IMG/VR virus record: IMGVR_UViG_2854869019_000002
Span: 2,707 to 66,706 of that record
From: a virus
Taxonomy: Duplodnaviria > Caudoviricetes
Strand: one strand, 5' to 3'
DNA length: 64,000 bases
Shown piece by piece: positions 682 through 54,597 of the stretch. The notes beneath the pieces are model-generated. The model was not told the origin of the DNA and ran no database searches. It saw only the letters and a list, made by a program, of their open reading frames with translations. Each line of letters starts with the position of its first letter. The stretch's first letter is position 1. Position numbers and translations under genes: made by a program.

Positions 682-803
682 TATTAGTGCTCCTCGTGTG
701 GTGGTGGTGGTAAGCGTGACGACCCGTGGCGTGAAAACGCGCGGATCGTCGATGGTTGGGAATCTTGGGGCTCATCGGCCCCGTCGCTATCTCTTACGAT
801 AAA

Positions 804-1028
804 TCATGTGACGCCGAGGCCTACTGCGCCAACAGTCACGAAGAAACCGATGACCACAGTCATTTCAACGGCTTCTCGCGCTGCATATCGCACCCAAGGC
901 ATGGGTCGGGCGTGCTTCTTTGCGCGGTAGTCAGGTCGGCGCATTGGCTCGTCGCTGCAGGCACGATTCACTTCGGTCTGCGTGTCCGGCTCCATATCTG
1001 CGAGCAATTCCAGCAGGGCGCGGTTCAT
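804..1028 (-). CDS. Hypothetical protein with C-terminal TM helix
   Basis: TAATG-coupled to upstream gene; hydrophobic C-terminus. Confidence 0.7.
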   Translation of the reverse strand: MNRALLELLADMEPDTQTEVNRACSDEPMRRPDYRAKKHARPMPWVRYAAREAVEMTVVIGFFVTVGAVGLGVT

Positions 1029-1357
1029 TACGCAGCCTCCTTAACTTCGGAGACTTCGCTGGCGACATTCTCAACGCTGGCACCTGCCTCGCGGAGTTCA
1101 GCAAAGAGTAAGCCTTGATTGCTGGTAGCAATCGCGCCGCTTGTCTGGAAAACTTCGTATGTTTCTCCGGGGCAGAGCTTGGCGAGGCGTGTTGCCTCTG
1201 CCAGTGCTTGCTCGAACGAGCCGTGTTCATACGGTAGGGAAGTGGCAACGCTAACGCGGCCGGTCTGTTTACCGCGGCGGAATACAAAGAATCCGCCGCC
1301 GATAACTTCGTTCCTGCGAGGTGCTGGCGATCTTCTTCTTCTCGGGGTCTTGCTCAT
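1028..1357 (-). CDS. Hypothetical early protein
   Basis: ACACGAGGAG RBS at 1366-1375; first gene after leftward promoter. Confidence 0.8.
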   Translation of the reverse strand: MSKTPRRRRSPAPRRNEVIGGGFFVFRRGKQTGRVSVATSLPYEHGSFEQALAEATRLAKLCPGETYEVFQTSGAIATSNQGLLFAELREAGASVENVASEVSEVKEAA

Positions 1358-1429
1358 GATTTCTACTCCTCGTGTTTGGTGGATTCAGCAGATTAAGCTG
1401 GTGAGGCCGTCTTCGTGCTACTGCTAACA

Positions 1430-1506
1430 CATATACGATAAACGTATTTTAGTGTCAATTCAAAAATACGAAAATCGTATATGACACAGATATACGATTA
1501 TGCGAT
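1430..1506. promoter_or_regulatory. Left operator cluster (ATACG-N5-CGTAT at 1433-1447, 1466-1480, degenerate 1492-1506) and leftward sigma70 promoter
   Basis: Palindromes ATACGATAAACGTAT and ATACGAAAATCGTAT; minus-strand TTGACA(1458-1453)-N17-TATATG. Confidence 0.8.
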
Positions 1507-1515
1507 ATATCTGCT

Positions 1516-2103
1516 ATGGAAACGGATATAATAAAATGGTTCGCTGAAGCGCTTGATGCTTGTGGGTTGACGCAAGAGCAAGTTGCAAAAGAGCTCGGAT
1601 TAAACCGACAGCCTGCGATAAGTGAAATTCTAAAGGGCAAGCGTCAGCTCAAGGCCAATGAAATGGTCATAATGAGTAAGCTGAGCGGAATGCCACTCCC
1701 GGATCGCAGCACAAAGATACCTGTGCTTGGATATGTCGGCGCTGGCGCCGAAGTTTATCCAATCGACGATGGCGATCCGCTGTACGATGTAACCATCAGT
1801 AGCGCACTCCCGAAAGACACAGTCGGCGCTATTGTTCGCGGCGACAGCATGTATCCCATTTTTGAGGATGGGGATCTGGTGGCCTACTCAGGAATCGAGA
1901 TGCTACCCGAAGACGCGCTCGGCAAAACTTGCATGGTCGAACTGCAAGATGGTCGCGTCCTCATAAAAACCGTTCGTCGCGGTGTGGTTCCCGGCCTCTA
2001 CACTTTAACCAGCACAAATGCTCCGGATATAGAAGATGTAGAAATTGTGTGGGCTAGGAAGTTTGTAATGCGGATGCCAAGGGAATTTTGGCGCTCTCTA
2101 TAA
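1516..2103 (+). CDS. CI-like repressor (XRE HTH + S24 autopeptidase)
   Basis: HTH LTQEQVAKELGLNRQPAISEILKG; VGAG cleavage site, GDSM Ser motif, LIK Lys. Confidence 0.92.
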   Translation: METDIIKWFAEALDACGLTQEQVAKELGLNRQPAISEILKGKRQLKANEMVIMSKLSGMPLPDRSTKIPVLGYVGAGAEVYPIDDGDPLYDVTISSALPKDTVGAIVRGDSMYPIFEDGDLVAYSGIEMLPEDALGKTCMVELQDGRVLIKTVRRGVVPGLYTLTSTNAPDIEDVEIVWARKFVMRMPREFWRSL

Positions 2104-2219
2104 TACGATTATCGTCTGAATTCTAAAGGTCGCATTAGCGGCCTTTTTTCTTCCCTTTTTTTACAAATACGAAAAACGTATCAATATTCGTTGACAGAAA
2201 TACGAATCGCGTATATCTT
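2103..2219 (+). promoter_or_regulatory. Right operator cluster (2103-2117, 2167-2181, 2200-2214) and rightward early promoter
   Basis: Same 15-bp palindrome; TTGACA(2191-2196)-N17-TATCTT overlapped by the third operator. Confidence 0.8.
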
Positions 2220-2515
2220 CCAATCGTCAACCGACACTTAGAAGGTCGGGACACACAAAAGGAGAATGAATTGCATAAAGAGAAGCCGGAGCTTCCGCGA
2301 CCGGACAGATAGTAAGTCTGCCAAGTACCAAAGCCACCCAAGACGACCGACCAGGCACACGAGGAGAAGATCATGAACATTTCAGTCAGAGCGCTTTTCA
2401 CCGACAACAACAAATACCCACCGTAGACCAACAGGAGCGCTGGCCTCGCATATGAGGCTGGCGATGTTGCGCGTGGCAAGATGCCAAAACAGTAAGTTGA
2501 CGATGGAGCTTTGTC

Positions 2516-3010
2516 TTGGCCAATCATCTTATTTCTATTGATACGGTTGGCCGTGAAATCAAAGCCCGCATTGAGGCTGGTGATAAAGCATTAGATAAAG
2601 CCGAGCAGCATTATATTGCTGCCGGTATTCAGCTTGCTGCTGCAAAGCAACGGCTGTCAGAGACCCGTGAAATGCGATGGTCGGCATTCCTTTTCTCGCA
2701 TGCTCGCCTTAGCGACGAAACCGCCCGCAAGTACATGATGTTGGCAAATGGCGATACTACTCTGGAAGAGATTAGAGAAAAGAATGCCGCTGCCGTTAAG
2801 CGGCACAGAGAAAAGAAATCAGCCTCACAACAACAGCTTTCGGAAAAACCCAATTACGTAATTGGAAGTATTCAACAACAAAATCAACGCACTAGCAATT
2901 CACTAGGCAGAATTACAAGAATTGTCGAAGCCATTCAAGCAGCCGGTGACGACGTATTATCTCAAATTGAAGCGCTGCTTAACATCACAGAGGAGAATGT
3001 GAATGGCTAG
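2516..3010 (+). CDS. Hypothetical helical phage protein (DUF3102-like)
   Basis: GGAG RBS + TTG; AGIQLAAAK...W..FL...LSDETARKYM pattern. Confidence 0.6.
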   Translation: MANHLISIDTVGREIKARIEAGDKALDKAEQHYIAAGIQLAAAKQRLSETREMRWSAFLFSHARLSDETARKYMMLANGDTTLEEIREKNAAAVKRHREKKSASQQQLSEKPNYVIGSIQQQNQRTSNSLGRITRIVEAIQAAGDDVLSQIEALLNITEENVNG

Positions 3011-3365
3011 AGCATTAGTCAAGTCAGATCCCAAAAGCCTAGAAATAGCAATTTCTGACATTAAGGCTGGAAATCGTCCTGTCAGCATCCCGCTTACGGA
3101 TCGTCAACCTGAATATACTGATTATCAAGCGCTCGGATTTGTGCTGCTTGAAACGGTATTGCGTCAAATGACGCCGTGGGAAATCAGCTTCGCCGCAAGC
3201 ATGATAAGCACCAGTCATCCATCTGCCAAGCAGCGCGAGCGCGCAAAAATCATTCTTAAAATTTATCTCGGTCTAGATATTGATGCTGGAACAACGCCAT
3301 CTTCCGGCGTGGCTAACGATAATGCGCCTGCCACCGCATCCACGCGCCGTAAAAAATCAGCCTAA
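3003..3365 (+). CDS. Hypothetical protein ending VANDNAPATASTRRKKSA
   Basis: GAGGAG RBS, coupled ORF. Confidence 0.75.
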   Translation: MARALVKSDPKSLEIAISDIKAGNRPVSIPLTDRQPEYTDYQALGFVLLETVLRQMTPWEISFAASMISTSHPSAKQRERAKIILKIYLGLDIDAGTTPSSGVANDNAPATASTRRKKSA

Positions 3366-3635
3366 CACCCATTCTGCCTTACCAGCAGAACGTCATATCT
3401 GGATGACGACCAAACACGAACAAAAGCCCTACGCCAGATAGTATGGCGAAAACTAAAAAGGCGGAGTTTGTGAGCCGGCACCACCCGCTGCTCGCTCCGC
3501 CCCGTAATAACAGGGCACACGAGGAGGAGCTAAGCTCAACCAAACCCTGTTTTCCTTCGCAGGTACCACCCCGCGCAGGACCACAGATGGCTTCACCAAG
3601 GCTATTTGTCAACCGACACCAACCACGAGGAGAGC

Positions 3636-3929
3636 ATGAAAGATTATGAAACCATAGAAGAAGTGCATCGTATGCACGAGGCAGGAGCTAACCCGACCGA
3701 GATCGGAAATGCGCTTAGCCTACCCAGATCGACGGTAGCTTCAATTTTGCGTCGTCCTATTCCAAAATCTACAGCCGACCGCGTTGTCGTGCGGTGTGTT
3801 TCTAACGGTGGTTGGTCCACGGCCAATCACTGTGTGAGTTATATCGCAATGCCGCGCATTCGAGCGTTGGAAGCCGCGAACGATAACTACGAGCAAAACA
3901 CAAAACAGCCGGGCGAAATCGCAGCCTGA
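3636..3929 (+). CDS. HTH DNA-binding protein ending AANDNYEQNTKQPGEIAA
   Basis: GANPTEIGNALSLPRSTVASILR HTH; CCACGAGGAG RBS before ATG 3636. Confidence 0.8.
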   Translation: MKDYETIEEVHRMHEAGANPTEIGNALSLPRSTVASILRRPIPKSTADRVVVRCVSNGGWSTANHCVSYIAMPRIRALEAANDNYEQNTKQPGEIAA

Positions 3930-4000
3930 GCAAAGATGGCCTCTGCGCCGATACAGCGGAATGCAGGCCACAGATCAACCTCCTGACAGGAGGAATATCA

Positions 4001-4204
4001 ATGAAATCCCACAACTTGCATGAGCCACACAAGGCGCATCAAACAAAATTTACACGAACTGGCGAGCGGGACACAACAAACCGCAAGCCTTATCGAACAG
4101 CCGCTCAGAAGCTTCATGCCCGAGACACTGCTATCGTTAAAGACGGTCGTTACGTGTCAAACGCGCCTGTGTTGTTCAGCAGAACGCAACGGAGGTCAGC
4201 ATGA
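4001..4204 (+). CDS. Small basic hypothetical protein
   Basis: AGGAGG RBS; ATGA coupling to next gene. Confidence 0.7.
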   Translation: MKSHNLHEPHKAHQTKFTRTGERDTTNRKPYRTAAQKLHARDTAIVKDGRYVSNAPVLFSRTQRRSA

Positions 4205-4512
4205 CTTGTGATTGCGGCGATTGCTGGGATTTTCCCGGCTCAATTGTGACCCACAAACTGACCGGCTGGAAGGGCGTCATAATCGGCGACCGAGACGGTT
4301 GTACGTTCCTCACGGTGCGGTTCTGGATATCAGGCACAGGGCTTGGAACGATGGAAGCTTCGCGCTTCGAAGTTGAACCACCAGCCAATGATGGCGACGG
4401 CGGTGGCGGCTCTGAAGTCGGAACCGAAGAAGACAATGTCATTCCGGTTGACTTTACCAAGGGGGTGAAGCTGACCGCAAAAACAAAAACAAAGACGAGG
4501 GGAGTAGCGTGA
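4201..4512 (+). CDS. Hypothetical protein (SH3/KOW-like beta core)
   Basis: GGAGG RBS; FPGSIVTHKLTGWKGVII pattern. Confidence 0.7.
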   Translation: MTCDCGDCWDFPGSIVTHKLTGWKGVIIGDRDGCTFLTVRFWISGTGLGTMEASRFEVEPPANDGDGGGGSEVGTEEDNVIPVDFTKGVKLTAKTKTKTRGVA

Positions 4513-4661
4513 TGGCCCCATTCAAAGACTACGTCGTTGAAGACGACCGCATCTTGTCCAGCGAAACAGCGCTGGGCCTTGGCGATCGTTTCGTCATGGG
4601 GCTCGCAGTTGTCGCAGCCTTAGCAGTGGCCATCGGCTTTTACTCATGGGTGCTATTGTGA
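4512..4661 (+). CDS. Small membrane protein (49 aa)
   Basis: Manual translation MAPFKDY...GLAVVAALAVAIGFYSWVLL; TGATG coupling. Confidence 0.65.
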   Translation: MAPFKDYVVEDDRILSSETALGLGDRFVMGLAVVAALAVAIGFYSWVLL

Positions 4662-4816
4662 ACGTCGTAACGCCAGTCGGCAATGGCACCGGCAAGATAG
4701 CGCGTTCGCTTGCTCTGACGGGCTTTACGCTAGCGCTTTTGCTGGCCGTGGCAGGGCTCATCTTCTGGAATGCAGTGCTGCCATTCTACGGCGTGCTTTA
4801 TTTGTGGGGGAACTGA
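4658..4816 (+). CDS. Small membrane protein (52 aa)
   Basis: GTGA overlap; MNVVTPVG...LALLLAVAGLIFWNAVLPFYGVLYLWGN. Confidence 0.6.
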   Translation: MNVVTPVGNGTGKIARSLALTGFTLALLLAVAGLIFWNAVLPFYGVLYLWGN

Positions 4817-4956
4817 TGGAAACCTTCGACAGGATTCATGGCATCTTTCTTATGGTCGTCGGGTGCGGATTCCTCTGGTACGGGCGCACTGACTTAGCAA
4901 CGTTCATGACCGCTCTTGCTGGCGTGCATTTCGCCAGAATCGCGGCATTCAAATGA
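4816..4956 (+). CDS. Small membrane protein (46 aa)
   Basis: TGATG overlap; METFDRIHGIFLMVVGCGFLWYG... Confidence 0.6.
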   Translation: METFDRIHGIFLMVVGCGFLWYGRTDLATFMTALAGVHFARIAAFK

Positions 4957-5057
4957 CCTACCCACGCTTTCCCACAATGGCAACATCCGCGCCGGTCTGG
5001 CTGATTGGCTCACTTGTTTTGCTAGCCATGATGATCGCCATCCAACTTACCCACTGA
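4953..5057 (+). CDS. Small membrane peptide (34 aa)
   Basis: ATGA overlap; MTYPRFPTMATSAPVWLIGSLVLLAMMIAIQLTH. Confidence 0.5.
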   Translation: MTYPRFPTMATSAPVWLIGSLVLLAMMIAIQLTH

Positions 5058-5088
5058 CCACCGACCAAAACCACACGAGGAGTTATTT

Positions 5089-5877
5089 ATGGCTATCAGC
5101 CTATCAAGCCTCAAGTCTACGAAGAGAAACGACCCGCCAGTCATGCTTTTGTATGGCGTCGACGGCATCGGCAAGACCAGCCTTGCCGCTGAGTTTCCTG
5201 ATCCAATCTATCTTGCAACAGAAGGCGAGCGACCGCCGTCTGATGTTGAAATGGCAACGCCAGGCACGATTGAAAGCTTTGAAGATCTGCTGAATATCAT
5301 TGGCGAGCTGCTCACGGAAGAACATGATCGGCGCACCGTCATCCTCGATAGCGCCGACGGCTTAGAACCGCTTGTCTGGGCTGCGACCTGTGCCCGTCTT
5401 GGCATCACCAGCATTGAGGAAGCCGGGTTCGGTAAAGGCTACGTGGAGGCCGATACCGAATGGAATGAACTGATGTCGGCTTTATCCGCCGTGGCGCAGG
5501 CTGGCATTTATGTGGTCATCCTTGCGCACCCTGAAATCGTGCGCTTCGACAGCCCTACAACCGATCCATATTCACGATACCAGCCTAAGTTGCATAAGCG
5601 AGCAAATGCACTGGTTCGTGAAAAGTCTGACGTCGTCGCATTCATGAACTACCGCGTTTCCATCAAGGAAAAGGAAGTTGCGCGCCAGACAAAGGTCGCA
5701 CATGCTGAGGGCGGCAAAGAACGCCAGATCCATCTGAATGAAGGTGCAGGCTTCAATGCCAAGAACCGCTATTCAATGCCTGATGCTGTTCCATACCGCA
5801 AAGGGCAGGGTTTTACTGAACTGGCGAAGTACTGGCCGGTTGCGAATGACAATGCGGCGCAAAGGGACGCCGCATAA
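5089..5877 (+). CDS. Sak4-like AAA_24 ssDNA-annealing ATPase
   Basis: Walker A YGVDGIGKT, Walker B VILDS, C-terminal AKNR; next to DUF669 SSB. Confidence 0.88.
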   Translation: MAISLSSLKSTKRNDPPVMLLYGVDGIGKTSLAAEFPDPIYLATEGERPPSDVEMATPGTIESFEDLLNIIGELLTEEHDRRTVILDSADGLEPLVWAATCARLGITSIEEAGFGKGYVEADTEWNELMSALSAVAQAGIYVVILAHPEIVRFDSPTTDPYSRYQPKLHKRANALVREKSDVVAFMNYRVSIKEKEVARQTKVAHAEGGKERQIHLNEGAGFNAKNRYSMPDAVPYRKGQGFTELAKYWPVANDNAAQRDAA

Positions 5878-6119
5878 TGGAAAAAGCACTGGCAGGACTG
5901 GTTACCGTTGCCGCCATCCTTTTCTTTGCACCACTGATCGGCGTTCTCTTCGGCGCGTTCTCGGGATGGGTTGTCGGCTTCTTCTTCACTGAAACTGTGC
6001 AGTCATTCCTCACCGCTTTAGGCGTCAATGCCGGTCACTTGTCACTTTGGCAGATCGGCGCTGCGCTTGGCTTCATCGGTGGGTTCTTTCGACCAACCGT
6101 GTTCCGCGCAAAACCTTAA
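5877..6119 (+). CDS. Small membrane protein
   Basis: TAATG coupling; hydrophobic Gly-rich helices. Confidence 0.75.
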   Translation: MEKALAGLVTVAAILFFAPLIGVLFGAFSGWVVGFFFTETVQSFLTALGVNAGHLSLWQIGAALGFIGGFFRPTVFRAKP

Positions 6120-6176
6120 TCGGCGCATTCATTCTGCGCATTCAAATACCACACCACCAACACGAGGAACTAATAC

Positions 6177-6737
6177 ATGGCGAGACTTGGAACGGCGTTT
6201 GACGCCACCCAACACGACACGACGCAGTCGGATTATTCCGAACTGCCGAATGGCACATATAAGATGGAGATCGAAGCGGCTGATGTTACTCCGACATCGA
6301 CCGGCAGCGGCACCGTTTTGAAAACCACAATGAAGGTGCTTGAACCGGCAGATTATGCCGAGCGTAAGATGTTCAGTAACTACAACATTGAGAACAAGAA
6401 TCCGACCGCGCAGGAGATCGGCCAAAAGCAATTTGCCAGCCTTTGCCGCGCGATTGAAGTGTCGGCGGTCGAAGATACTGACGACCTGCTTTTCAAGTCG
6501 TTCACCGTTCGTGTGGCTCTCGGTAAGCCTTCAAAAGACGGCCAGTACCCCGCGCGCGCTGAGATCAAGAAATACTTCTTCCCAGACGAAAACAACGTGC
6601 CAGAAGCGTCAATTGACGTTCAGCAACCTACTTCGCGTCCGGTAGCTGCAAATGACAATAGGGCAGCGGCTGCAAACGATAACAAGCCAGCGCAGGCTGC
6701 AAAAGCTGCGGGCAGCCGTCCTTGGTCTAAGGGCTGA
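6177..6737 (+). CDS. DUF669 family ssDNA-binding protein
   Basis: YSELPNGTY...NYNIENKNPTAQEIG..QFASLCRAI; C-terminal PW. Confidence 0.85.
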   Translation: MARLGTAFDATQHDTTQSDYSELPNGTYKMEIEAADVTPTSTGSGTVLKTTMKVLEPADYAERKMFSNYNIENKNPTAQEIGQKQFASLCRAIEVSAVEDTDDLLFKSFTVRVALGKPSKDGQYPARAEIKKYFFPDENNVPEASIDVQQPTSRPVAANDNRAAAANDNKPAQAAKAAGSRPWSKG

Positions 6738-6801
6738 TCTATAACTGGCTACCGGTGCTTTCGCGCCGGTGGCCAACCGAACCGAACACGAGGAGTTTTG
6801 T

Positions 6802-7605
6802 ATGGCTTATGTATCCGAGCGCAGACAGATCGATGGTGCGCTTCCAATACGCTTTGACGGCGCCTTCGTTGCTGGCGGCGCAGTAACGAGCGTATTTACA
6901 GGCGCTGAAATCAATGACGTTGATCTCTATTTCAAATCTCGCCGCGCATTCGAGCGAGCTGTTTATGATGCATATGAGGAAGGCTTATGGTGCGTTGCAG
7001 CCAGTAAGCGCGCGGTGACGTTCACCGATCAGAGCAACAATATTGCTCAGCTGATGTATTTTGACTTCTTCCCAAGTGCCCAGTCTATTTTTGACGCCTT
7101 TGATTTTACCGTTTGCATGGGCGCGGTGGATCTGGACGCGGGCGCCAATAGCCCCGACTCCGGATTTGCCTTTCATCCTGACTTTCTGAAGCACAACAGC
7201 CAGCGCTTTCTGAAATTCAATGCTGGTACACGTTATCCACTCGCGTCAGCTACCCGCGTCCTGAAATACCAACAGCGCGGCTACACCATTGGGAAAGGCG
7301 ACATCATGAAAGTTGCCTTGGCCGTTCGCGGCGTGAAGATCGAAACTTGGGAAGACCTCAAGGACCAGATCGGCGGCGCTTACGGTGACAAGGTTGTACT
7401 TGGAAACGAGGACAAACCTTTCACCATTGAAGCGGCTATCGAGGCGCTGACTGTTGAGGATGCCGAAAGTGAACCATGGGTGCAACCGGTCAACGATAAT
7501 ATGCCGGGTAATGCCGAAGCGCTTCTGGAACACCTTGCCGATCTCAATGGCATCGAATTTGTTCCGCCTGAACTTGATGAAGACGGCTGGCCTCTAGCGG
7601 CCTAA
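6802..7605 (+). CDS. Nucleotidyltransferase-fold protein (poly(A) polymerase/CCA-head-like)
   Basis: FVAGGAV..., NDVDLYF (DxD), FDFTVC; ACACGAGGAG RBS before ATG 6802. Confidence 0.7.
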   Translation: MAYVSERRQIDGALPIRFDGAFVAGGAVTSVFTGAEINDVDLYFKSRRAFERAVYDAYEEGLWCVAASKRAVTFTDQSNNIAQLMYFDFFPSAQSIFDAFDFTVCMGAVDLDAGANSPDSGFAFHPDFLKHNSQRFLKFNAGTRYPLASATRVLKYQQRGYTIGKGDIMKVALAVRGVKIETWEDLKDQIGGAYGDKVVLGNEDKPFTIEAAIEALTVEDAESEPWVQPVNDNMPGNAEALLEHLADLNGIEFVPPELDEDGWPLAA

Positions 7606-7662
7606 ACCAACCACGGCGCGGTCACCAGCCGCGCCTAACACCACCAACACGAGGAGAAACCC

Positions 7663-8721
7663 ATGCGGGTAACGCTTGATCGAGCACAGCTTGCGCACGC
7701 CTTGTCGACCGTGACAAAGGCAGTTGAGGCCAGAACGACAATTCCAATTCTTGGCAACGTGCTTTTGTCCGCGGACAATGGACAGTTGAGCATCACCGGT
7801 ACAAATCTTGATCTGGAAATCAGCACCAGCTTGCCGGTTCTGGACAGCCAGGACGGCACTGTAACTGTTGCAGGCAAGCTGCTTCTGGATATTGCCAAGA
7901 AGGCAACGGGCGACGTTATGCTGGAAGCCGATGGCGATCATCTGGTCATCAAATCTGGAAAGAGCCGTTTCAAGCTGGATACGCTACCAGCGGCTGACTT
8001 CCCGTCCTTCAATCGCGGAAGCTTCGATACCACGATCGAGTTCGATCTGGCATCGCTCGTGCAGACTGTCCAGTTTGCAGTAAGCACCGACGAGACCCGC
8101 TTTTATTTGAACGGCGTCTTTCTGGAAGCAAAGGACGGCCATATCGTTGCCACGGCGACAGATGGTCATCGCCTAGCGTCGACACGTATCGAGCAGGAAG
8201 CATCGTTTGCGTCGGTCATTCTGCCCAACAAACTGCTGTCATTGCTACCGACCGGCGTTGTGTCGGTGTCGCTGTCGTCAAACAAGATCATGGTCGAAAG
8301 CGGTTCTACTGTAATCGTGTCGAAACTCGTCGACGGCACATATCCGGATTACGAGCGGGTTATTCCAAAGCCATCAGAGCGTGTCGCTACGCTGTCGGCT
8401 AAAGCACTGCGCGAAGCCGTCGGCCGCACATCAGTTATCGCCAATGAACGGGGCAGGGGCGTGCGCTTCTCGTTTGCATCTGATGCCCTGACGCTGAATG
8501 TGGCCAACCCAGATCGCGGTGATGCGACTGAGGAGATGGAAGTTTCATTTAGCGCAGAGCCGCTGACGATTGGATTCAACGGTCAGTATGTCAACGATCT
8601 CATGGCGGCATTTGGCGCTGATGAAGTCACGATGTCGATGGCCGACTCCGGTTCGCCAGCATTGGTAACATGCGCAAGCAGGCCGGGATATAGGTGCGTA
8701 ATTATGCCGATGCGGGTGTAG
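7663..8721 (+). CDS. dnaN: DNA polymerase III beta sliding clamp (phage copy)
   Basis: TIPILGNVLL, GTNLDLEI, DETRFYLNGV, ATDGHRL, C-terminal VIMPMRV. Confidence 0.95.
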   Translation: MRVTLDRAQLAHALSTVTKAVEARTTIPILGNVLLSADNGQLSITGTNLDLEISTSLPVLDSQDGTVTVAGKLLLDIAKKATGDVMLEADGDHLVIKSGKSRFKLDTLPAADFPSFNRGSFDTTIEFDLASLVQTVQFAVSTDETRFYLNGVFLEAKDGHIVATATDGHRLASTRIEQEASFASVILPNKLLSLLPTGVVSVSLSSNKIMVESGSTVIVSKLVDGTYPDYERVIPKPSERVATLSAKALREAVGRTSVIANERGRGVRFSFASDALTLNVANPDRGDATEEMEVSFSAEPLTIGFNGQYVNDLMAAFGADEVTMSMADSGSPALVTCASRPGYRCVIMPMRV

Positions 8722-12900: not shown

Positions 12901-13003
12901 AAAAATAAATTTGAATTTTTACGGATGAAGGCTTGCACCGAGTGGCGACGCCACCACAATGAGCATTACCGGCCTCACCAGCTAACCACACGAGGAGTAT
13001 GAA

Positions 13004-13759
13004 ATGACGGATGTTACCTTCGATCCATATACCATTGCTGCCGTGGCAGAGATGGGCCACAACAACCCGCCAACCTCTGCATATGAAGCGATCAGACAGG
13101 AAATCGAAGACCTGTTCGATGAATCTAAGAATTTCGCGGACGGCGAAGCGATTGACAGTGCTGCATTAGCCGAAGCCGTTACCGAACTGCACGACAAGCT
13201 GCATGACGCTGGCAAGCGTGCTGACGAGGTTCGCAAGGACGAAGCTAAGCCGCACGACGATGCCAAGGCTGAAATTCAGACGCGCTACAACAAGTTGATC
13301 GGAAACACTAAGACGTCAGGAAAAGGCAAAGTCGTGCTCGGCAAGGAAGTGCTCCAAGGGCTGCTGACCCCATGGCGCAATAAGGTTGCCGCCGAAAAGG
13401 AAGCTGCGGCACGTGCAGCGCGTGAGGAAGCCGACCGCGTAATCCGCGAGGCACAGGAAGCCATGCAGGCGAGCGCTGGCAATCTGGAAGCACGCGAACA
13501 GGCCGAGGAACTGGTCAAGGAGGCGAAACAAGCCGACCGTTGGGCCAAGCGCGAAGATAAAGCCGCTACTACTGGCACTGGTCTGCGTTCGGTCTGGCAC
13601 GCTGATATGATTGACGAAGGCATAGCTTTGGATTGGGCATATGGCAGAGCACCCGAGCGTTTCAAAGCTGTCGTGCAGGCAATGGCCGAGGAAACAGTGC
13701 GCGCTGGTATGCGTCAGGTGCCTGGTTTCAAGGTGCGTGAGGAAAGGGTGGCTAGGTGA
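13004..13759 (+). CDS. Coiled-coil phage protein of unknown function
   Basis: ACACGAGGAG RBS; N-terminal GHNNPP; C-terminal VPGF. Confidence 0.8.
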   Translation: MTDVTFDPYTIAAVAEMGHNNPPTSAYEAIRQEIEDLFDESKNFADGEAIDSAALAEAVTELHDKLHDAGKRADEVRKDEAKPHDDAKAEIQTRYNKLIGNTKTSGKGKVVLGKEVLQGLLTPWRNKVAAEKEAAARAAREEADRVIREAQEAMQASAGNLEAREQAEELVKEAKQADRWAKREDKAATTGTGLRSVWHADMIDEGIALDWAYGRAPERFKAVVQAMAEETVRAGMRQVPGFKVREERVAR

Positions 13760-14557: not shown

Positions 14558-14617
14558 TTATAGCAACCACCCCGCCATCCACCAACTGGCGGGTTGCCAC
14601 ACACGAGGAGAGAATGA

Positions 14618-15190
14618 ATGCAGGAAGAGCTACCCAGCGGGCCTTTTGGCTGCGTCCTTGCGGACCCGCCATGGTCTTTCAGAACGTACGGAAAAAAAGA
14701 CGTTGCGCCGGCACGAGGCCGTCAGCCTTACGGTGTAATGTCACTTGACGATATCAAAGCGCTGCGTGTCGAACAGGTATGCGCTCGCGACTGTTTGTTG
14801 TTTATGTGGACGGTTTCGCACCTGCAGGCCGCTGCAATCGATGTGGCTGCCGCGTGGGGATTCAAACCTGTCAGTGTTGCTTTTGTCTGGGACAAAGGCC
14901 GCATGGGCATGGGTTACTGGACACGGCAGGAAGTAGAAATCTGTCACTTGTTCAAGCGGGGCAAGCCTCGCCGTCTATCGAAGGGCGTGCGCTCCCTTAT
15001 CAAGGCTCCGCGCCGCGAGCATTCCCGCAAGCCCGATGAGCAATACGGACGCATCGAGAAGCTGGTCGACGGTCCTTATCTCGAGCTCTTCGCTCGTCAA
15101 GCGTGGCCGGGTTGGTCTTCATGGGGCAACGAGTCTGAGAAGTATGTGGCTGCCAATGATAACCAAGATTTGCTGGGGAGGGTGGCTTAA
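14618..15190 (+). CDS. MT-A70 family adenine methyltransferase
   Basis: ADPPW, LFMW, REHSRKP, LELFAR, WGNE. Confidence 0.93.
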   Translation: MQEELPSGPFGCVLADPPWSFRTYGKKDVAPARGRQPYGVMSLDDIKALRVEQVCARDCLLFMWTVSHLQAAAIDVAAAWGFKPVSVAFVWDKGRMGMGYWTRQEVEICHLFKRGKPRRLSKGVRSLIKAPRREHSRKPDEQYGRIEKLVDGPYLELFARQAWPGWSSWGNESEKYVAANDNQDLLGRVA

Positions 15191-22747: not shown

Positions 22748-22911
22748 ACTTTTTAGAAAATTTCCTGATTGAAAAATACAACCTGATTTGAGGTTGGTTG
22801 AAATTATACCGGTTGACGCTTGACCGACGTGTCACTCCCACCATGATGTGAATTGTTCCGCTACCAACGGAAGCCCACCAAGCTGACACACCATGAACAC
22901 GAGGAGAGACA

Positions 22912-23496
22912 ATGACACGAAGACGTGCGCTGAACGGCGCGTCATCCGGCAAGCCAAAAACCACAACGCAAATTGTCCGGATCAATGGCGTCCGAACAAT
23001 CATCACGACACGCAACGGCAAGGTCACAACAAAAGCAGCCCTGCCTTTAGAATGGGAACTGCAAGCTGCACAAGTTCGCAGCCTGCGCAGATTGCCAGAG
23101 TACGTCCACACAGCGCGAGACGTTCGACCGGGAACATTCACACTAGCTGGAGATCAAAACGCAGCCAAGCGCGGCCCCAAGGCAAGAGCCGAGGCATTAG
23201 CGGCAGGTCTTACACCAGGCGAGGCCGACGTGAGGATTTACATCTACGGCGGTGTGCTGCGCCAGATTGAGAACAAGGTCGGCAAAGCCAAGCTTGAACC
23301 AAGCCAGATAACCCGCCATCCGTTGCTCGATGCTCTTGGCTTTCCAGTCGTGGTGGTCAGGGCAGTTACCGAGGATGATGCAGCAGCGCAGGCAGTGAGG
23401 CTGGTTAAAGGCTGGCTGCTGGAGGCTGCTGTGCCGGAAGCGGCGAATGAAAACCAACCAACACCACATGGGGAGAACATTAATGACGCAGATTAA
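22912..23496 (+). CDS. VRR-NUC-like nuclease
   Basis: EWELQ, GLTPGEAD, IENK, LEPSQ..H..L..LGF.V.VVR. Confidence 0.8.
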   Translation: MTRRRALNGASSGKPKTTTQIVRINGVRTIITTRNGKVTTKAALPLEWELQAAQVRSLRRLPEYVHTARDVRPGTFTLAGDQNAAKRGPKARAEALAAGLTPGEADVRIYIYGGVLRQIENKVGKAKLEPSQITRHPLLDALGFPVVVVRAVTEDDAAAQAVRLVKGWLLEAAVPEAANENQPTPHGENINDAD

Positions 23497-25470: not shown

Positions 25471-25547
<77 letters not shown>

Positions 25548-25566: not shown

Positions 25567-25643
25567 TGCGGAGTGGAGAAGTGGTCATCTCGTCTGGCTC
25601 ATAACCAGAAGATCGTCGGTTCGAATCCGACCTGCCGCAACCA
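25567..25643 (+). tRNA. tRNA-Met(CAT), initiator-like, with one bulged base in the acceptor stem
   Basis: TGCGGAG...TCTGG CTCATAA CCAGA...GTTCGAATC...CTGCCGCA ACCA. Confidence 0.8.
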
Positions 25644-34492: not shown

Positions 34493-34536
34493 CCGCATCA
34501 GCCGGAATTTACCACCACCAAAACACGAGGACCAAT

Positions 34537-34986
34537 ATGGCCCAAGCTACCACGATTAAATCGGGTAAAATCCGCGTATTGCTCGGCAATGACGCAACCC
34601 CGACAGTTTATGAAAATCCCTGCGGTTTCACGCAGCGCTCAATCACCATCACGAAGGGCCTTGAAGAGGTCAATATTCCAGATTGTACGAATCCCGACCT
34701 CGTTGATTGGGTGGGTCGAGATGCAACCAGTCTTTCGATGAGCGTGAGTGGCGAAGGTGTGCTGGCTGCGGAAAGTGTTGACGCATGGCTTGAAGCCGTG
34801 GACAGCATTGACTCCGTGCCCGTGAAAATCGAATGGGAATTCCCTTTGAAGACGATCGTGTGGACCGGCTTCATGCATGTTGAAAGCATGGAAGTTGGTG
34901 CTACCAACGGCCAGCGTGCCACGAACAACGTCAGCCTTCAGTCTGATGGCGTCATGGTTCGTACGTCTACACCGGCTGGTGGCTAA
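34537..34986 (+). CDS. Major tail tube protein
   Basis: PCGFT, SVSGEGV, LQSDG; ACACGAGGAC RBS. Confidence 0.85.
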   Translation: MAQATTIKSGKIRVLLGNDATPTVYENPCGFTQRSITITKGLEEVNIPDCTNPDLVDWVGRDATSLSMSVSGEGVLAAESVDAWLEAVDSIDSVPVKIEWEFPLKTIVWTGFMHVESMEVGATNGQRATNNVSLQSDGVMVRTSTPAGG

Positions 34987-48921: not shown

Positions 48922-48951
48922 TTAACCTATCCCCACAATCGGACCGACCAC

Positions 48952-50491: not shown

Positions 50492-50516
50492 TCGTAAACG
50501 ATATCACAAACAGCAA

Positions 50517-50552: not shown

Positions 50553-50634
50553 ACCCCGGCTCGGAAGTGTGCCGAGCCGGGGCAATGCGAGCCTTCCAGT
50601 CGCGTCGTTAAGGTTGGCCCGCATTTTCTTTTAA

Positions 50635-50739
50635 TCATTGTGGCAACCACCACAGTAGAATGCATGCCAAAGCCGTTGCCAGTACGGCACCAGCAAAGAG
50701 CAAGGTCTGATCTGAAAAGGTGAAATTGAAAATTGTCAT
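50635..50739 (-). CDS. Small TM peptide (34 aa)
   Basis: MTIFNFTFSDQTLLFAGAVLATALACILLWWLPQ; ATGA coupled. Confidence 0.5.
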   Translation of the reverse strand: MTIFNFTFSDQTLLFAGAVLATALACILLWWLPQ

Positions 50740-50819
50740 CTGCGATTATGCTCCGACCAGATCATAAAGCCGATCAGGGCGAGCAACGCAGTCGTCATAA
50801 ACCCAATGAACCAACCCAT
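50736..50819 (-). CDS. Small TM peptide (27 aa)
   Basis: GGAGGA RBS; MGWFIGFMTTALLALIGFMIWSEHNRR. Confidence 0.55.
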   Translation of the reverse strand: MGWFIGFMTTALLALIGFMIWSEHNRR

Positions 50820-50839
50820 AACAATTCCTCCGCTCAGTA

Positions 50840-50865
50840 AACGCCTTTAGCGGGAAAAAAGTTCA
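50840..50865 (-). promoter_or_regulatory. EcfG-type promoter
   Basis: TGAAC-N17-CGTT. Confidence 0.5.
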
Positions 50866-51030
50866 ATCACTCTTTAAAATAGAAAGCCCCGACAGGCGGG
50901 CCTAGCCGGGGCTGAGCGTTCTTGAAGCGGGGGCTTCAACCGCTCCCGATCATCACCCCACAAAGTAAGGAAAACACAATGGTCAGAACCATTGAATCAA
51001 ACCCGCTTCTCTTGATGCTGGGCATCAACG

Positions 51031-51357
51031 TTACCTTACTTCGAGAACTTCACCGGTGCTTCGGTCAATAACGACACGCATATCATTGTCGCGGCGGTCT
51101 ATTCCTCGAATGACATAAGAGTTCCTGCGTCGTGAGACACTTTCGACTTCATCCATTCCTTCATCCCGCGCAATTCTCGCGGCTCGACGCTCGCTTATTT
51201 CTCCGCGATCTGGTCGGCGATCCCGATCCATCCTACGGTTTCCATCTGGAACTATTTGAATTCCATTCGGACCGACCTCGATGCTTTGTGCTTGTGCTGG
51301 AGCGGAAAAAGCGACAGCCGACATGATTAACACTGCGATTGCTGTAAGCTTGTACAT
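51031..51357 (-). CDS. Secreted PepSY-like protein
   Basis: Signal peptide AQA-Q; ISERRAARIAR..G, VVIDRSTGEVL. Confidence 0.8.
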   Translation of the reverse strand: MYKLTAIAVLIMSAVAFSAPAQAQSIEVGPNGIQIVPDGNRRMDRDRRPDRGEISERRAARIARDEGMDEVESVSRRRNSYVIRGIDRRDNDMRVVIDRSTGEVLEVR

Positions 51358-51398
51358 GGCAACTATCCGTTCAAGGTTGTGCGCCCACCGTTCAATTG

Positions 51399-51423
51399 AA
51401 CGAGCTCAGTTCCCCTTAGTTCC
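51399..51423 (-). promoter_or_regulatory. EcfG-type promoter
   Basis: Perfect GGAAC-N16-CGTT. Confidence 0.7.
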
Positions 51424-51509
51424 TGTGGCTACTGTCAACTCTCCTAACACTCTGAATATCCTGTGATCGCTGCAGCGCTTTCTCTCGTTTGAATTCCTAG
51501 GACAATCCA

Positions 51510-52373
51510 ATGAACAAAACAACGTTCTTCGCGTATGCGAGGCGCGCGCCTTTTGGCGGCCGTCTCTCGCAGGCGCAGGTTGATGGCACATCTGCTATAT
51601 TGACCGAAGCCCTCAAGCGTAATCTACCCGATGAGCAGATCGCGTATATCCTAGCGACTGTCTTTCACGAGACAGGCGGCAAGATGCAGCCGGTCGTCGA
51701 GAACCTAAACTACAACACTGCATCGCAGATCAAGAAGACATGGCCGACGCGATTTCCAACCGTCGCAAGCGCAGAGCTTTATGTCCGCCAGCCTCAAAAA
51801 CTTGCCAATAAGGTCTACGGCGGACGCATGGGCAACGATAATGCTAACGATGGTTGGCTTTTTCGCGGGCGAGGCCTGCCTCAGATTACAGGCGAGGACA
51901 ACTACAAGAAGTTCGGCATTGCTGATGCACCTGAGAAGGCGCTAGAGCTACCCACAGCAATCCGCATTCTCTTTGAAGGCATGGTGCTGGGTAAGTTCAC
52001 GGGACGGAAGCTGGGCGACTTTTTCGGCAAGGGTAAAGCCGATGCTGAAGGCGCGCGGGCTATCGTCAACGGCACCGATAAGGCCACGTTGATTGCTGGC
52101 TATTACCGCAATTTCCTCGACAGCCTCGTCGCTGCGCGCGAAATGAAAGCGGTGGCTGTTGAAGATGCCAAGCCTGACGACGTGCCCCTCCTCAAGGATA
52201 AGGCGGTGCAGACCATCGTCGCAGCTGGTGGCGGCACGTTCGTGACCGGCCTTATTGGTGCGGTTTCCAATCCATGGGCATTCCTGACCGTTGCCTTGAT
52301 CGTGGTTGCCTTAGGTGGTGGCTTCTGGCTTTGGCATACAGGCAGGCTGGAACTGAAGAGGATGGCGGTGTGA
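51510..52373 (+). CDS. Endolysin, glycoside hydrolase family 19, with C-terminal TM segments
   Basis: LATVFHET, ENLNY, DGW.FRGRGLPQITG..NY, RAIVNG. Confidence 0.9.
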   Translation: MNKTTFFAYARRAPFGGRLSQAQVDGTSAILTEALKRNLPDEQIAYILATVFHETGGKMQPVVENLNYNTASQIKKTWPTRFPTVASAELYVRQPQKLANKVYGGRMGNDNANDGWLFRGRGLPQITGEDNYKKFGIADAPEKALELPTAIRILFEGMVLGKFTGRKLGDFFGKGKADAEGARAIVNGTDKATLIAGYYRNFLDSLVAAREMKAVAVEDAKPDDVPLLKDKAVQTIVAAGGGTFVTGLIGAVSNPWAFLTVALIVVALGGGFWLWHTGRLELKRMAV

Positions 52374-52606
52374 CGTGGCTTTTAACATTGCGCTCCAAGA
52401 TTACAGACTACGCCGTGGCAATCGCTGCGGCTCTGGCCGTCCTTGTCGGCGCATATCTCAAAGGCCGGTCTGACAGCAAAACAGCGCAGACCGCGCGCGA
52501 CGCACAATCGGCAACCAAAGCACGGAAGATAGAAAATGAAGTCAGCCGTCTTGATGACAGCGCTGTTGACGCTCGGCTTGCTAAGTGGATGCGCGACAAG
52601 CGGTAA
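52370..52606 (+). CDS. Inner-membrane spanin-like protein
   Basis: N-terminal TM + YLKGR + helix; overlaps lipoprotein gene. Confidence 0.7.
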   Translation: MTWLLTLRSKITDYAVAIAAALAVLVGAYLKGRSDSKTAQTARDAQSATKARKIENEVSRLDDSAVDARLAKWMRDKR

Positions 52607-52721
52607 CTATTGCAATATGGCGCGGGCGATCTACGCCAGCCATTACGACACATCAGAAACCAAGCGCCAAATCCTGGCAGAGAATGAGAAAATGGAAAAG
52701 CTATGCGGGGTGCGGCCGTGA
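52536..52721 (+). CDS. Outer-membrane spanin lipoprotein
   Basis: Lipobox LSGC; overlapping frame. Confidence 0.75.
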   Translation: MKSAVLMTALLTLGLLSGCATSGNYCNMARAIYASHYDTSETKRQILAENEKMEKLCGVRP

Positions 52722-52746
52722 TGAACGAATTGATGGATATTGAAAA

Positions 52747-53082
52747 ATGACCGGCACTGAAATCATGGGGGCTGTCGGCTTTATCGTGATGCTGTTCGGC
52801 TTCCTGTTTGGCCTTTGGAAATATATCGAAGGCCACATCAGGACGGTGAGATCAGAATGCGGAGTTAAAGCTGACGCAGCTACCGCACTTGCCGCGCTGA
52901 CGAGGCAGGAGCTTTCAGACTATAAGCTGCGTGCGGCTGAAACATTTGCAACAAAGGCCGGGATGCAGGAGCAGACCTCGCAGATCATGCGTGCCATCGA
53001 AAGCGTTGCAAACCGCATTGACGGGCTTACCGAGCGCATGGATCGTGTGTTTGAGCAGAAGACGACGCGGGCGCGATCCTGA
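52747..53082 (+). CDS. Single-TM coiled-coil lysis-module protein (holin-like)
   Basis: N-terminal TM; position after spanins. Confidence 0.55.
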   Translation: MTGTEIMGAVGFIVMLFGFLFGLWKYIEGHIRTVRSECGVKADAATALAALTRQELSDYKLRAAETFATKAGMQEQTSQIMRAIESVANRIDGLTERMDRVFEQKTTRARS

Positions 53083-53122
53083 TGTAGTAAAAAAGCGGTC
53101 TTTGGGCCGTTTTTAAGCACGT

Positions 53123-53404
53123 TTAAGCCCCGGTTAGAGCATTAACGCTATGAGATGGTGATCTATTAGTCCCCGAGAACGGCTTTCTCTTAGGCTTAGG
53201 CAGTAATCCTTCACGTTGTGCTTTTTTCTTCGCTTCTTTTCGGGCCCTGCCTATGGCAGCTTCCTTTTCGCGAATTCGTTTTTCTGAAGGCTTTTCAAAT
53301 GCACGGCGGGCCTTCATCTCACGGAAAACACCCTCACGCTGTAATTTCTTTTTCAAAACACGTAAGGCTTGATCAATGTTATTGTCTCGGACAAGAACTT
53401 GCAT
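53123..53404 (-). CDS. rpsU: 30S ribosomal protein bS21
   Basis: [37 protein letters not shown]. Confidence 0.96.
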
Positions 53405-53412
53405 AACGGCTC

Positions 53413-53601
53413 CTAACGTCTAGCTTCCAAAGATGAATCACGGGCTATTCTTGCTGCCCTCAACCGATCAGTCTTAGCGGAGGTCGCGGATTTTTCTTCA
53501 TTGAGAATAGACTTAGCTGTGTGATCAATTCGCGACTTGAGCACCTCGGGGTGCTTATTAAGTCGCTTGAAAAGAGTATCTTTTGTGTATTCGGTTATCA
53601 T
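53413..53601 (-). CDS. Small protein of the rhizobial cspA-orf-rpsU operon
   Basis: AKSILNEE....[14 protein letters not shown]; between cspA and rpsU. Confidence 0.75.
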
Positions 53602-53961
53602 GGCGATGTTCTCCAAATATAAAATAAAGCCTATGACTAACGGGCTCGGCTTTTTGAACAACCGCCAGCAGTTCGTCTCAGAACGTTTGAAAGTTTTGAC
53701 CAGTCGCGCGGCGAAGTAATGCGCTTTGAGATGTTTCCCATCAAGCGGGACTGATCCAAAGGCGAAATATCAATCTTACTGGATTGATTTGTGAGGTTTC
53801 GTGAATGGTCTCGTTGGTTTTCCATAAGAGCCTCTCTGTTAAATTTATTAATTCAATGAGCACGCAAATAAAAAGGGCCGAGCGTGCACTCGACCCTTTA
53901 AAAGTAAACTTCTTTCAACAGTGCCAGTACATCCGTGGTCAAAGGAAAGGAGAAAACCTAT

Positions 53962-54171
53962 TTATGCAGCCTGAAGGTTGCAGGCCGACATCTTGCCGGA
54001 CTTCATGTCTCGTTCCATATCGTAGCCAATCTTCTGTCCTTCGACGATTTCGCGCATTCCGGCGCGCTCGACGGCAGAGATATGAACGAAGGCATCTGCA
54101 CCACCGTTATCAGGCTGAATGAAGCCGAAGCCTTTTGTGGAGTTGAACCATTTGACTGTGCCAGTGGTCAT
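53962..54171 (-). CDS. cspA: Cold-shock protein
   Basis: GTVKWFN..KGFGFI, AFVHISA. Confidence 0.96.
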   Translation of the reverse strand: MTTGTVKWFNSTKGFGFIQPDNGGADAFVHISAVERAGMREIVEGQKIGYDMERDMKSGKMSACNLQAA

Positions 54172-54597
54172 AATAAACCCTTTCATAGAAGTATAGAGGG
54201 CAACACGCAGTTGCGTGAAGTAAAGTGATAACGATTATTAAAAAGGGGTTCGTTCAGGACGCGGTGCTAAACGCGTAATAAAGCAAAACTCATCAAGAAA
54301 ATATCGATAATTAATACTTAATGCGTGAGCTTGAATTTGTCAAATTATATTTATTTTTATTCTTGAAAATGGAATTATATATAATGTTTGTACGGATATT
54401 TGTTCGGGAATTATTTCAAAAACTTACAACAGGCGAATGTTCAAAAAAAGGTCGGGTGATCCAGATATTTGTCAGACGCTGAGCGAGGTAATTTCTGGAG
54501 CTATTTCGGCGCGCTGCTGTTGACGCCCCTTTCACTTCCACCACAATGAAAAATTGCTGGCCGCCAACCCGCTAACCAACCAACACGAGGAGACTGT

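Follow-up and report, generated by a model that had tools for sequence, protein, structure and literature searches.

A repeated 10-mer at early gene starts and a candidate antisense small RNA in a family of alphaproteobacterial prophages

Introduction

Why would a temperate phage place the same ten bases in front of one early gene after another, when the ribosome can pair with only some of them? The question is raised by a 64,000-nt stretch of a Caudoviricetes virus record (IMG/VR IMGVR_UViG_2854869019_000002, positions 2,707 to 66,706), referred to here in its entirety as the window, in which the 10-mer ACACGAGGAG recurs before early genes on both strands. Pfam and PHROG scans of its 97 open reading frames (ORFs) identify the window as an HK97-like temperate siphophage prophage. 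An earlier reading of the sequence alone (the original prediction) had noticed the repeat, likened it to the start-associated sequences (SAS) of Cluster K mycobacteriophages, and suggested a site for an RNA-binding regulator, a cleavage site or microhomology for cassette shuffling. The defining properties of SAS were given by Pope et al. (2011; PMC3203893, cited here for selected passages), and the passages drawn from two recent papers still call their role unknown (PMC11373665, 2024; PMC12699233, 2025).

On balance, we favor a reading in which the motif is a Shine-Dalgarno (SD) sequence extended into the shared target of a phage small RNA (sRNA), which would repress the early genes together. 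The candidate sRNA is encoded on the opposite strand of the one copy of the 10-mer that has no start codon behind it.

Results

The 10-mer marks the first genes of early translational units

A recount of the window returned 11 exact copies of ACACGAGGAG, at the coordinates and on the strands originally given, together with the three reported one-mismatch copies, for a total of 14 at one mismatch or fewer (Table 1). In 100 dinucleotide-preserving shuffles, the mean number of exact copies was 0.06 and the maximum was 1. The whole genome (4.9 Mb, GC 53%) holds 13 copies of the 10-mer, 11 of them inside the window; neither of the two in the remaining 4.84 Mb stands at a start codon, and neither has a C/A-rich tract upstream. 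The original prediction had asked how the motif compares with host ribosome-binding sites, and its frequency there is not equal: ACAC precedes GAGGAG N4-9 ATG at 10 of 11 such sites in the window vs. 0 of 200 in the host. Likewise, the 9-mer CACGAGGAG followed by N3-9 ATG occurs 11 times in the window and not once in the host. The 10-mer is also rare outside its prophage family, as 23 genomes of the same genus that lack the family carry 0–5 copies. The repeat is real and highly non-random.

The 10-mer had been described as sitting just 5' of start codons. This stands for most copies, since 9 of the 11 exact ones lie 5–8 nt before the ATG of an ORF of 75–431 aa, and all three one-mismatch variants precede ORFs of 97–186 aa. 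It fails for the copy at 2357, which is followed by a 17-aa ORF only, and for the copy at 3517, which has no start codon within 15 nt and is called the startless copy below. Across eight related prophages, 83 of 93 copies lie 2–9 nt before an ORF of at least 40 aa, with a mode of 5–6 nt, and the start is ATG in 78 cases and TTG in 5. The C/A-rich tract reported upstream was confirmed in 87 distinct contexts from these prophages: positions -10 to -1 are poor in G and T, position -1 is A in 70%, and ACCA is found within 15 nt upstream of 63 of 74 motif sites vs. 28 of 326 control starts. From prophage to prophage the tract is only loosely C/A-rich and G/T-poor.

The 3' end of the host 16S rRNA reads ...GGATCACCTCCTTTCT. 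GAGGAG pairs with its CUCCUU through 6 bp, one of them G.U, at -7.5 kcal/mol. A direct reading of the 16S tail shows that the four bases of ACAC face U, C, U and beyond, and so lie outside anti-SD pairing as originally argued; SD function therefore accounts for positions 5–10 only. The 10-mer marks the first gene of early translational units, in which the genes behind mostly overlap by 1–4 nt, an arrangement that points to translational coupling. Exact copies are confined to replication, recombination, methylase or small early genes, and one variant stands at the major tail gene. The companion claim that morons use ordinary SD sequences was right in part: the porin, histidine-kinase and cold-shock genes do lack the 10-mer, but they have no clear SD either.

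GC-rich hairpins precede several of the sites, for example those at 6786, 7647 and 14601. In the hairpin before the methyltransferase gene (14566-14590), the stems are identical to those of the orthologue in genome G009 and the loop is reverse-complemented (AGCCACCAACT in G009, against AGTTGGTGGCT), a difference that amounts to loop inversion at an inverted repeat.

The 10-mer is conserved as a unit in prophages with unrelated repressors

A protein search of 61 genomes with one motif gene led to seven other genomes of the same genus, and pattern counts gave clusters of 9–14 exact copies within ~55 kb in seven relatives, one of them without the query gene. Conservation in related phages, a check suggested at the outset, was then measured with 11 motif genes of the window (the major-tail variant was left out). 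Their 63 orthologues from tblastn were taken whether or not they carried the motif. Upstream of these, the closest match was exact in 41 of the 63, one base off in 10 and absent in 12; a single gene, with the same G10-to-A change each time, accounts for six of the ten. Within this orthologue set, the 10-mer is 98.6% identical to that of the window, vs. 61.5% for the 20 flanking nt. By this comparison, selection acts on the 10-mer as a unit.

The repressor of the window has a match of 98% identity in one of the seven relatives, and a match of 43% over part of its length in one more. Because the 10-mer is the same in all eight prophages, across unrelated repressors, it is not tied to immunity specificity; a repressor operator or a stoperator-like repressor site was ruled out on this ground. 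A 15-mer scan of IMG/VR returned at least 119 loci and, among the matches listed, 39 hold 3–8 copies of the 10-mer within 15 kb or less. One of the IMG/VR contigs (L047, 69% GC) carries three copies at positions 3824-7516, in the context ACCAC(A/G)A-ACACGAGGAG-CAAGCC-ATG, with a fixed CAAGCC spacer before the ATG and a GC hairpin upstream. With no detectable similarity at the protein level between this contig and the window, the motif is not limited to a single phage lineage. A 19-mer from the same contig matched 13 species genomes, with a single copy in each and no cluster. Among the isolated phages of INPHARED, the window gave only short unrelated matches.

Conservation of this kind could also be expected of a sequence that acts as DNA, either as short homology for module exchange, which is the cassette shuffling of the original prediction, or as a stoperator-like protein site. 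Homology-block ends do fall within 25 nt of motif centres 80 times vs. a uniform expectation of 16.7 (4.8-fold), several orthologous genes join unrelated upstream neighbors at the motif, and the prophage encodes an annealing protein, SSB and exonucleases. With controls, however, the excess disappears: a breakpoint lies within 25 nt at 35 of 74 motif starts (47%), 75 of 181 abutting starts (41%) and 87 of 355 gapped starts (25%), the gene calls behind the two control classes being crude. With 47% against 41%, motif sites behave like other gene boundaries, and the shuffling idea found no specific support. Recombination, moreover, needs neither a fixed 5–8 nt to the ATG nor an SD core, and heteroimmune phages share the motif, which is thus not a repressor site. 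We consider a role as DNA very improbable.

The startless copy lies opposite a candidate structured sRNA

The startless copy is kept at the same place in seven of the eight prophages and in further IMG/VR loci. In an alignment of 28 distinct 200-nt versions, taken from the prophages and from IMG/VR loci among the matches listed, conservation drops directly outside its ten bases. On the minus strand, this region would encode a candidate sRNA of ~125 nt (Table 1). The complement of the 10-mer, CUCCUCGUGU, is invariant in 28 of 28 sequences and is the most conserved unpaired stretch of the candidate; it is complementary to the 11 exact sites of the window and is called the seed below. In the minimum-free-energy (MFE) fold, the seed is unpaired, between a tetraloop hairpin (P2a) and the 3' arm of the P2 stem.

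Covariation was tested on 21 distinct sequences, with four helices in ~125 nt. Of all cells, 92.6% are paired vs. 75.0% in column shuffles, and 0 of 500 shuffles reach the observed values. Compensatory changes occur in 18 of the 31 sRNA pairs, and when the 3' partners are slid along, pairing falls to 34–54%. The P2 stem, which encloses the 10-mer, exists in at least seven sequence versions.

The strand of this RNA can be judged from several features. Canonical pairs fill 598 of 646 cells on the minus strand (43 of them G.U) vs. 567 on the plus strand. Direct reading shows that the P2a loop is a GNRA (GAAA, GCAA) or UUCG tetraloop in 24 of 28 sequences on the minus strand, with no GNRA or UNCG on the plus strand (0 of 28), and a long two-tier hairpin followed by a U-run is present on the minus strand only. 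The MFE is -53 kcal/mol for the minus strand vs. -43 kcal/mol for the plus strand, both being near their own shuffles (z of -1.6 and -1.8, respectively). Taken together, these comparisons indicate that the structured RNA lies on the minus strand. Promoter-like boxes stand upstream of it: all 28 aligned sequences share TTGACAA, and CATCTGT varies at one position only, where at least 90% agree. The dyad in the spacer between them differs between lineages.

Rfam yielded only tRNA matches at the gathering threshold in the window, and nothing relevant at E up to 10 within 3380-3700, the phage C4 antisense RNA and the alphaproteobacterial sRNA families included. Among the isolated phages of INPHARED, the sRNA region had no blastn match.

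The sRNA and the motif occur together in the genus

A covariance model built from 21 sRNA sequences found the RNA in 21 of the 44 genus genomes, with 28 matches in all, and gave 26 matches among the 100 IMG/VR loci searched, out of at least 119. In 150 other genomes across the order, it gave no match under strict filters with 21 candidates scored per genome. All 19 genomes of the genus with at least ten 10-mers have the sRNA, and the 23 without the sRNA have 0–5 copies, as does a reversed-pattern control (0–5). Because one element carries both sRNA and motif in a set of related genomes, their co-occurrence is what regulation in trans would require rather than independent proof of it. Diverged sRNA homologues, which score 60–84 bits vs. 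~150, keep the seed nearly unchanged with much else altered. In two groups of these homologues, B and C, the sRNA adjoins the same kind of downstream gene, whose ribosome site is degenerate. Since these homologues occur without the motif regulon, the sRNA must have some role apart from it, perhaps on the adjacent gene only.

Group B comprises positions 2537-2669 of locus L183 and the equivalents in genomes G001, G006 and G026. The copies are near-identical, and there is no start-associated motif in the surrounding 60 kb. They may be cryptic remnants, which in principle could act on incoming phages of the family. Genome G019 has a further startless copy of the 10-mer (G019:C28:49484-49493, locus L026) in the loop of a 10-bp GC stem within the structural-gene region. 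On the late-gene sense strand this loop shows the anti-motif CUCCUCGUGU, possibly a second way to present the anti-sequence.

A proposed mechanism and how it weighs against its rivals

The motif, its position and its selective conservation are established, as are the structured RNA with its strand and the complementarity between the two. We propose that the 10-mer is the core of a composite initiation signal at the first cistron of each early unit in this temperate siphophage family. The signal would consist of a C/A-rich, G-poor tract, the GAGGAG SD and, as a 5' extension without a pairing partner on the ribosome, (A)CAC; the extension would be there because the full 9–10 nt doubles as the target of the sRNA. 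Encoded antisense between two early genes, the sRNA would present CUCCUCGUGU unpaired, and its pairing would cover the SD of the first cistron and block 30S binding. Translational coupling would spread the block, so that about two dozen early genes could be shut off together, and host mRNAs would be spared, none having the 9-mer at a start. The time of action could be the lysogenic state, the exclusion of related phages or the early-to-late switch.

The 10-bp duplex of seed and motif has a predicted energy of -16.6 kcal/mol vs. -7.5 kcal/mol for the motif with the 16S tail. The invariant sRNA loops GUGGUA and GUGGUG could make first contacts with ACCAC-type words, to which they are complementary and which are frequent ahead of the motif, both in the tracts and in hairpin loops. 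The dyad in the promoter-like region of the sRNA lies directly upstream of the neighboring helix-turn-helix (HTH)-like gene, which itself has a motif copy, and a mutual-repression switch formed by the sRNA and this gene is conceivable from the layout. That the sRNA is transcribed, pairs in trans and represses its targets, we infer from the sequence. The original idea of a site for a phage or host RNA-binding regulator thus survives as regards the site, with the amendment that the candidate regulator is the prophage's own RNA and not a protein.

A protein could nevertheless read the 10-mer on RNA, as a translational repressor or activator, or as an endoribonuclease cutting early mRNAs at the SD, in the manner of RegA or RegB of T4. 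The restriction of the motif to early genes, its fixed orientation and its strict conservation would all suit such a reader, which might use the startless copy as a decoy or, on the plus-strand leader, for autoregulation. Yet no Pfam or PHROG match among the 97 ORFs points to a family-conserved RNA-binding regulator, only two of the eight prophages have S21 and four the cold-shock gene, and the structure around the startless copy fits the minus strand better. We regard a protein reader as quite improbable. The idea that the motif is read by ribosomes equipped with the prophage S21 paralogue, a protein that sits near the anti-SD, is scarcely credible. The window does have an S21 gene (53123-53404, minus strand), 73.5% identical over 68 residues to the host copy and next to the cold-shock gene, but phage S21 was rejected as the motif reader because, of the 8 prophages with the motif, only 2 have it.

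Several observations weigh against repression by the sRNA. The -10-like box CATCTG is weak, and a consensus promoter scan did not call it. The co-occurrence of sRNA and motif may be simple linkage on one mobile element. Homologues of group B (4 genomes, seed CUCCUCGUGG) and the two group C elements examined are without start-associated copies; conversely, contig L047, with its three start-associated copies, has no startless copy in the 46.5 kb examined, of a record estimated to be 40% complete. No covariation was seen between seed and targets: in G007, L043 and L129 the seed ends in ...GUGG, yet their 12, 5 and 4 start-associated copies, respectively, keep A1. Pairing can thus explain no more than positions 2–10, and the first base may be part of the C/A tract. 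Among the sRNA homologues and targets compared, none came from a lineage in which the core had changed. Finally, full-length duplexes have medians of -38.2 kcal/mol for motif genes vs. -31.3 kcal/mol for other genes, with overlapping ranges and internal structure ignored.

Some of these observations would suit a simpler account, in which the motif is merely an optimized strong ribosome site spread by descent and recombination. It would combine an unstructured C/A-rich standby or S1-binding tract with a strong SD; the antisense RNA would regulate its neighbor gene only, and would contain the motif by overlap with a leader. C/A-rich leaders boost bacterial translation. In 51 of 83 cases the ATG is 5–6 nt away, which is the spacing of an SD; the tract upstream is not fixed and has only a loose bias to C and A; sRNA homologues occur without the motif regulon; and position 1 does not follow the seed. 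However, substitutions at C2, A3, C4 and G5 are almost absent, whereas the spacer and the tract diverge (98.6% vs. 61.5%). A generic enhancer would be expected to accept changes, so that near-fixed C2 to G5 speak against this account. Nor does the host ever use this form (0 of 200), and the startless copy is not the SD of the neighbor gene, whose own copy lies 106 nt downstream. We therefore think an optimized site rather unlikely, and prefer the SD that doubles as an sRNA target.

Layout of the prophage

The features discussed above are collected in Table 1. Rightward early genes encode a Sak4-like annealing protein, a DUF669/SSB-like protein, a sliding clamp, a Cas4-type exonuclease and a helicase, and further on a second exonuclease, three methyltransferases and a primase-polymerase. 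Next on the map are morons (porin, HWE kinase), a tRNA-Met, the terminase through tail genes and the lysis genes. The right part holds a minus-strand cold-shock/S21 cassette, another exonuclease cluster and the integrase (61011-62201).

Table 1. Positions of the 10-mer, of the candidate sRNA and of neighboring control elements in the window
Feature	Position	Strand	Context
CI-like repressor gene	1516-2103		
PR-like promoter	2191-2219		TTGACA-17-TATCTT
10-mer	690..699	-	8 nt before ATG of ORF 454-681 (75 aa); kept in orthologues
10-mer	1366..1375	-	8 nt before ATG of ORF 1028-1357 (109 aa, phrog_17352)
10-mer	2357..2366	+	leader downstream of PR-like promoter; then only 17-aa ORF 2373-2426
10-mer, startless	3517..3526	+	complement of candidate sRNA unpaired segment
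variant CCACGAGGAG	3623..3632	+	3 nt before ATG of ORF 3636-3929 (97 aa, weak HTH match)
10-mer	5073..5082	+	before Sak4-like annealing protein gene 5089-5877
variant ACACGAGGAA	6160..6169	+	before DUF669/SSB-like gene 6177-6737; variant kept in 7/8 prophages
10-mer	6786..6795	+	before ORF 6802-7605 (phrog_18122)
10-mer	7647..7656	+	before sliding-clamp gene 7663-8721; GC-rich hairpin upstream
10-mer	12988..12997	+	before exonuclease gene 13004-13759
10-mer	14601..14610	+	before MT-A70 methyltransferase gene 14618-15190, head of translationally coupled cluster
10-mer	22897..22906	+	before ORF 22912-23496 (phrog_824)
variant ACACGAGGAC	34523..34532	+	before major tail protein gene 34537-34986; sole late-region copy; common to G021 only
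10-mer	54583..54592	+	before exonuclease gene 54598-55893, head of coupled cluster
candidate sRNA, ~125 nt	3453..3578	-	MFE fold, covariation, strand test, covariance model matches
sRNA, P1 hairpin	3558-3575	-	loop GUGGUA
sRNA, AAGGAA	3552-3557	-	
sRNA, P2 stem	3544-3551 with 3509-3516	-	
sRNA, P2a hairpin	3527-3537	-	
sRNA, unpaired CUCCUCGUGU	3517-3526	-	exact complement of 10-mer
sRNA, two-tier terminator-like hairpin	3458-3503	-	loop GUGGUG
sRNA, U-run	3453-3457	-	
promoter-like boxes upstream of sRNA	3584..3612	-	TTGACA 3612-3607, 17-nt spacer with dyad, CATCTG 3589-3584

Around the PR-like promoter, the interval 2150-2426 has inverted repeats of the type ATACG...CGTAT, likely operators, and two tiny overlapping ORFs of 36 aa and 17 aa, the second of them motif-led. 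At the left end, a minus-strand ORF that runs off the window start (2-457) has a C-terminal Pfam match to RMF (ribosome modulation factor) at E 1.2e-6, just above the cut-off. The tRNA-Met (CAT; 25567-25643, plus strand) and a partial tRNA-like match upstream of it (25479-25536; Rfam, 38 bits) both lie between the early and late regions. The moron cassette at 53123-54186 (minus strand) is made up of the cold-shock gene, a small ORF and S21, and a similar cold-shock/small-ORF pair is found on host contig C27.

The ANDN tag that had been noted in many early genes does exist. The six-frame translation has 11 occurrences of ANDN (495 on the minus strand; 3312, 3876, 5842, 6648, 6672, 15152, 15958, 17728, 23678 and 55852 on the plus strand), several of them 8–13 residues before the stop, in tails that finish in A or AA (for example ...VANDNAAQRDAA*, ...AANDNVASEMRAAA* and ...PANDNRRPFKRRAA*). 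The tag of the host tmRNA predicted by ARAGORN is ANDNKAQGYALAA. Early proteins thus seem to carry built-in tails resembling the tmRNA tag, which would shorten their life.

Discussion

Has a system of this kind been seen in other phages? The resemblance to Cluster K proposed in the original prediction holds feature by feature, within the passages of PMC3203893 used here. Both SAS and the 10-mer are short asymmetric repeats in one orientation, with 11–19 copies (here 11 exact and three one-mismatch copies, and 9–14 exact copies per relative). Both lie a few nt before mostly ATG starts, at non-structural genes that belong to different families; in both, the SD core has conserved neighbors without a 16S partner. 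Each is virtually missing from the host genome, and each has a lone copy that stands apart from gene starts. The sequences differ (ACACGAGGAG here vs. GGGATAGGAGCCC in Cluster K), as do the host phylum and the phage lineage, so that the 10-mer is a functional analogue of the Cluster K SAS and not a homologue. In Cluster K, a 17-bp imperfect inverted repeat (ESAS) precedes about half of the sites, whereas here there is a C/A-rich tract, with GC hairpins at some sites; no shared 17-bp repeat was seen at the motif sites of the window, where the hairpins were not analysed systematically. A candidate trans-acting partner, the antisense sRNA, is present here, and none is described for Cluster K in those passages.

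Phage Anaya has 16 forward SAS copies and one reverse near-copy (12 of 13 bases). The latter lies in a hairpin loop (stem GCGCGG/CCGCGC) that follows a promoter-like TTGGCG-N17-TAGACT within the 385 nt separating genes 96 and 97. This reverse copy fits the same logic, and proves nothing yet. The region, L214 44700-45020 (record 59699-60019), is near the right genome end and has two hairpins, one of them covarying and the other with a loop, CCUCCUAUCCCC, that is a near-complement of SAS. It is conserved in 178 Mycobacterium phage records, where it mostly lacks annotation; an alignment of 9 of these shows the C/U-rich loop word intact in 4, with changes or loss in the other 5.

Small structured antisense RNAs of the early or immunity region are well known in phages, among them c4 of P1/P7, CI RNA of P4, sar of P22 and OOP of lambda. 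They act by short complementarity to phage transcripts, some of them at the ribosome site. Each of these addresses one or two sites of one operon, in contrast to a dozen dispersed genes with an identical target here. The alphaproteobacterial sRNAs AbcR1/2 and NfeR1 have a C/U-rich unpaired anti-SD seed for many mRNAs and a Rho-independent terminator. They are chromosomal, with host transporter targets and tolerant seeds, whereas here regulator and regulon are phage-borne and the target is letter-perfect. In T4, RegA is a translational repressor and RegB an endoribonuclease that cuts GGAG in early SD sequences. The logic is the same, global early-gene shut-off through a feature of the ribosome site, but the T4 effectors are proteins. 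No RegA or RegB homologue was noticed among the 97 ORFs in the Pfam and PHROG scans, a search with the RegA or RegB sequences themselves not being part of these.

Cluster A stoperators, as presented in the passages of PMC3203893, are alike in being many short asymmetric sites in one orientation near gene boundaries. Their ligand is the repressor of the phage itself, and they differ from one immunity type to another, whereas the 10-mer is identical despite unrelated repressors and keeps SD spacing. In the searched text of a paper on temperate Ochrobactrum phages (PMC5492332), the terms 'motif', 'Shine-Dalgarno' and 'small RNA' do not occur, and among the titles and abstract openings of the literature on prophage sRNAs with anti-SD seeds, nothing equivalent was found.

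The same phenomenon as mycobacteriophage SAS, which has been known since 2011 without a mechanism, has thus arisen independently in the prophages of one genus of Gram-negative alphaproteobacteria. What is new here is a concrete and cheaply testable partner RNA, supported by covariation, with an exposed segment that mirrors the motif. It also suggests what to look for in other phages: a start motif that is repeated, together with one startless or reversed copy inside a structured RNA. If the pairing is true, it would be a compact design for the coordinated shut-off of early genes, and could give cross-immunity between heteroimmune phages. The motif and the sRNA would then form a natural orthogonal translational switch.

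We would go one step further only tentatively, as the larger claim is possible rather than probable: that the family hard-wires its early genes into one translational regulon, by means of identical extended SD sequences and one sRNA with the perfect anti-sequence. If true, start-associated sequences in general, those of Cluster K included, would serve as targets of sRNAs. RNA-based immunity against the whole phage family, whatever the specificity of the repressor, would come from resident or cryptic sRNA copies, and the early proteins would be cleared in parallel through their tmRNA-tag-like tails.

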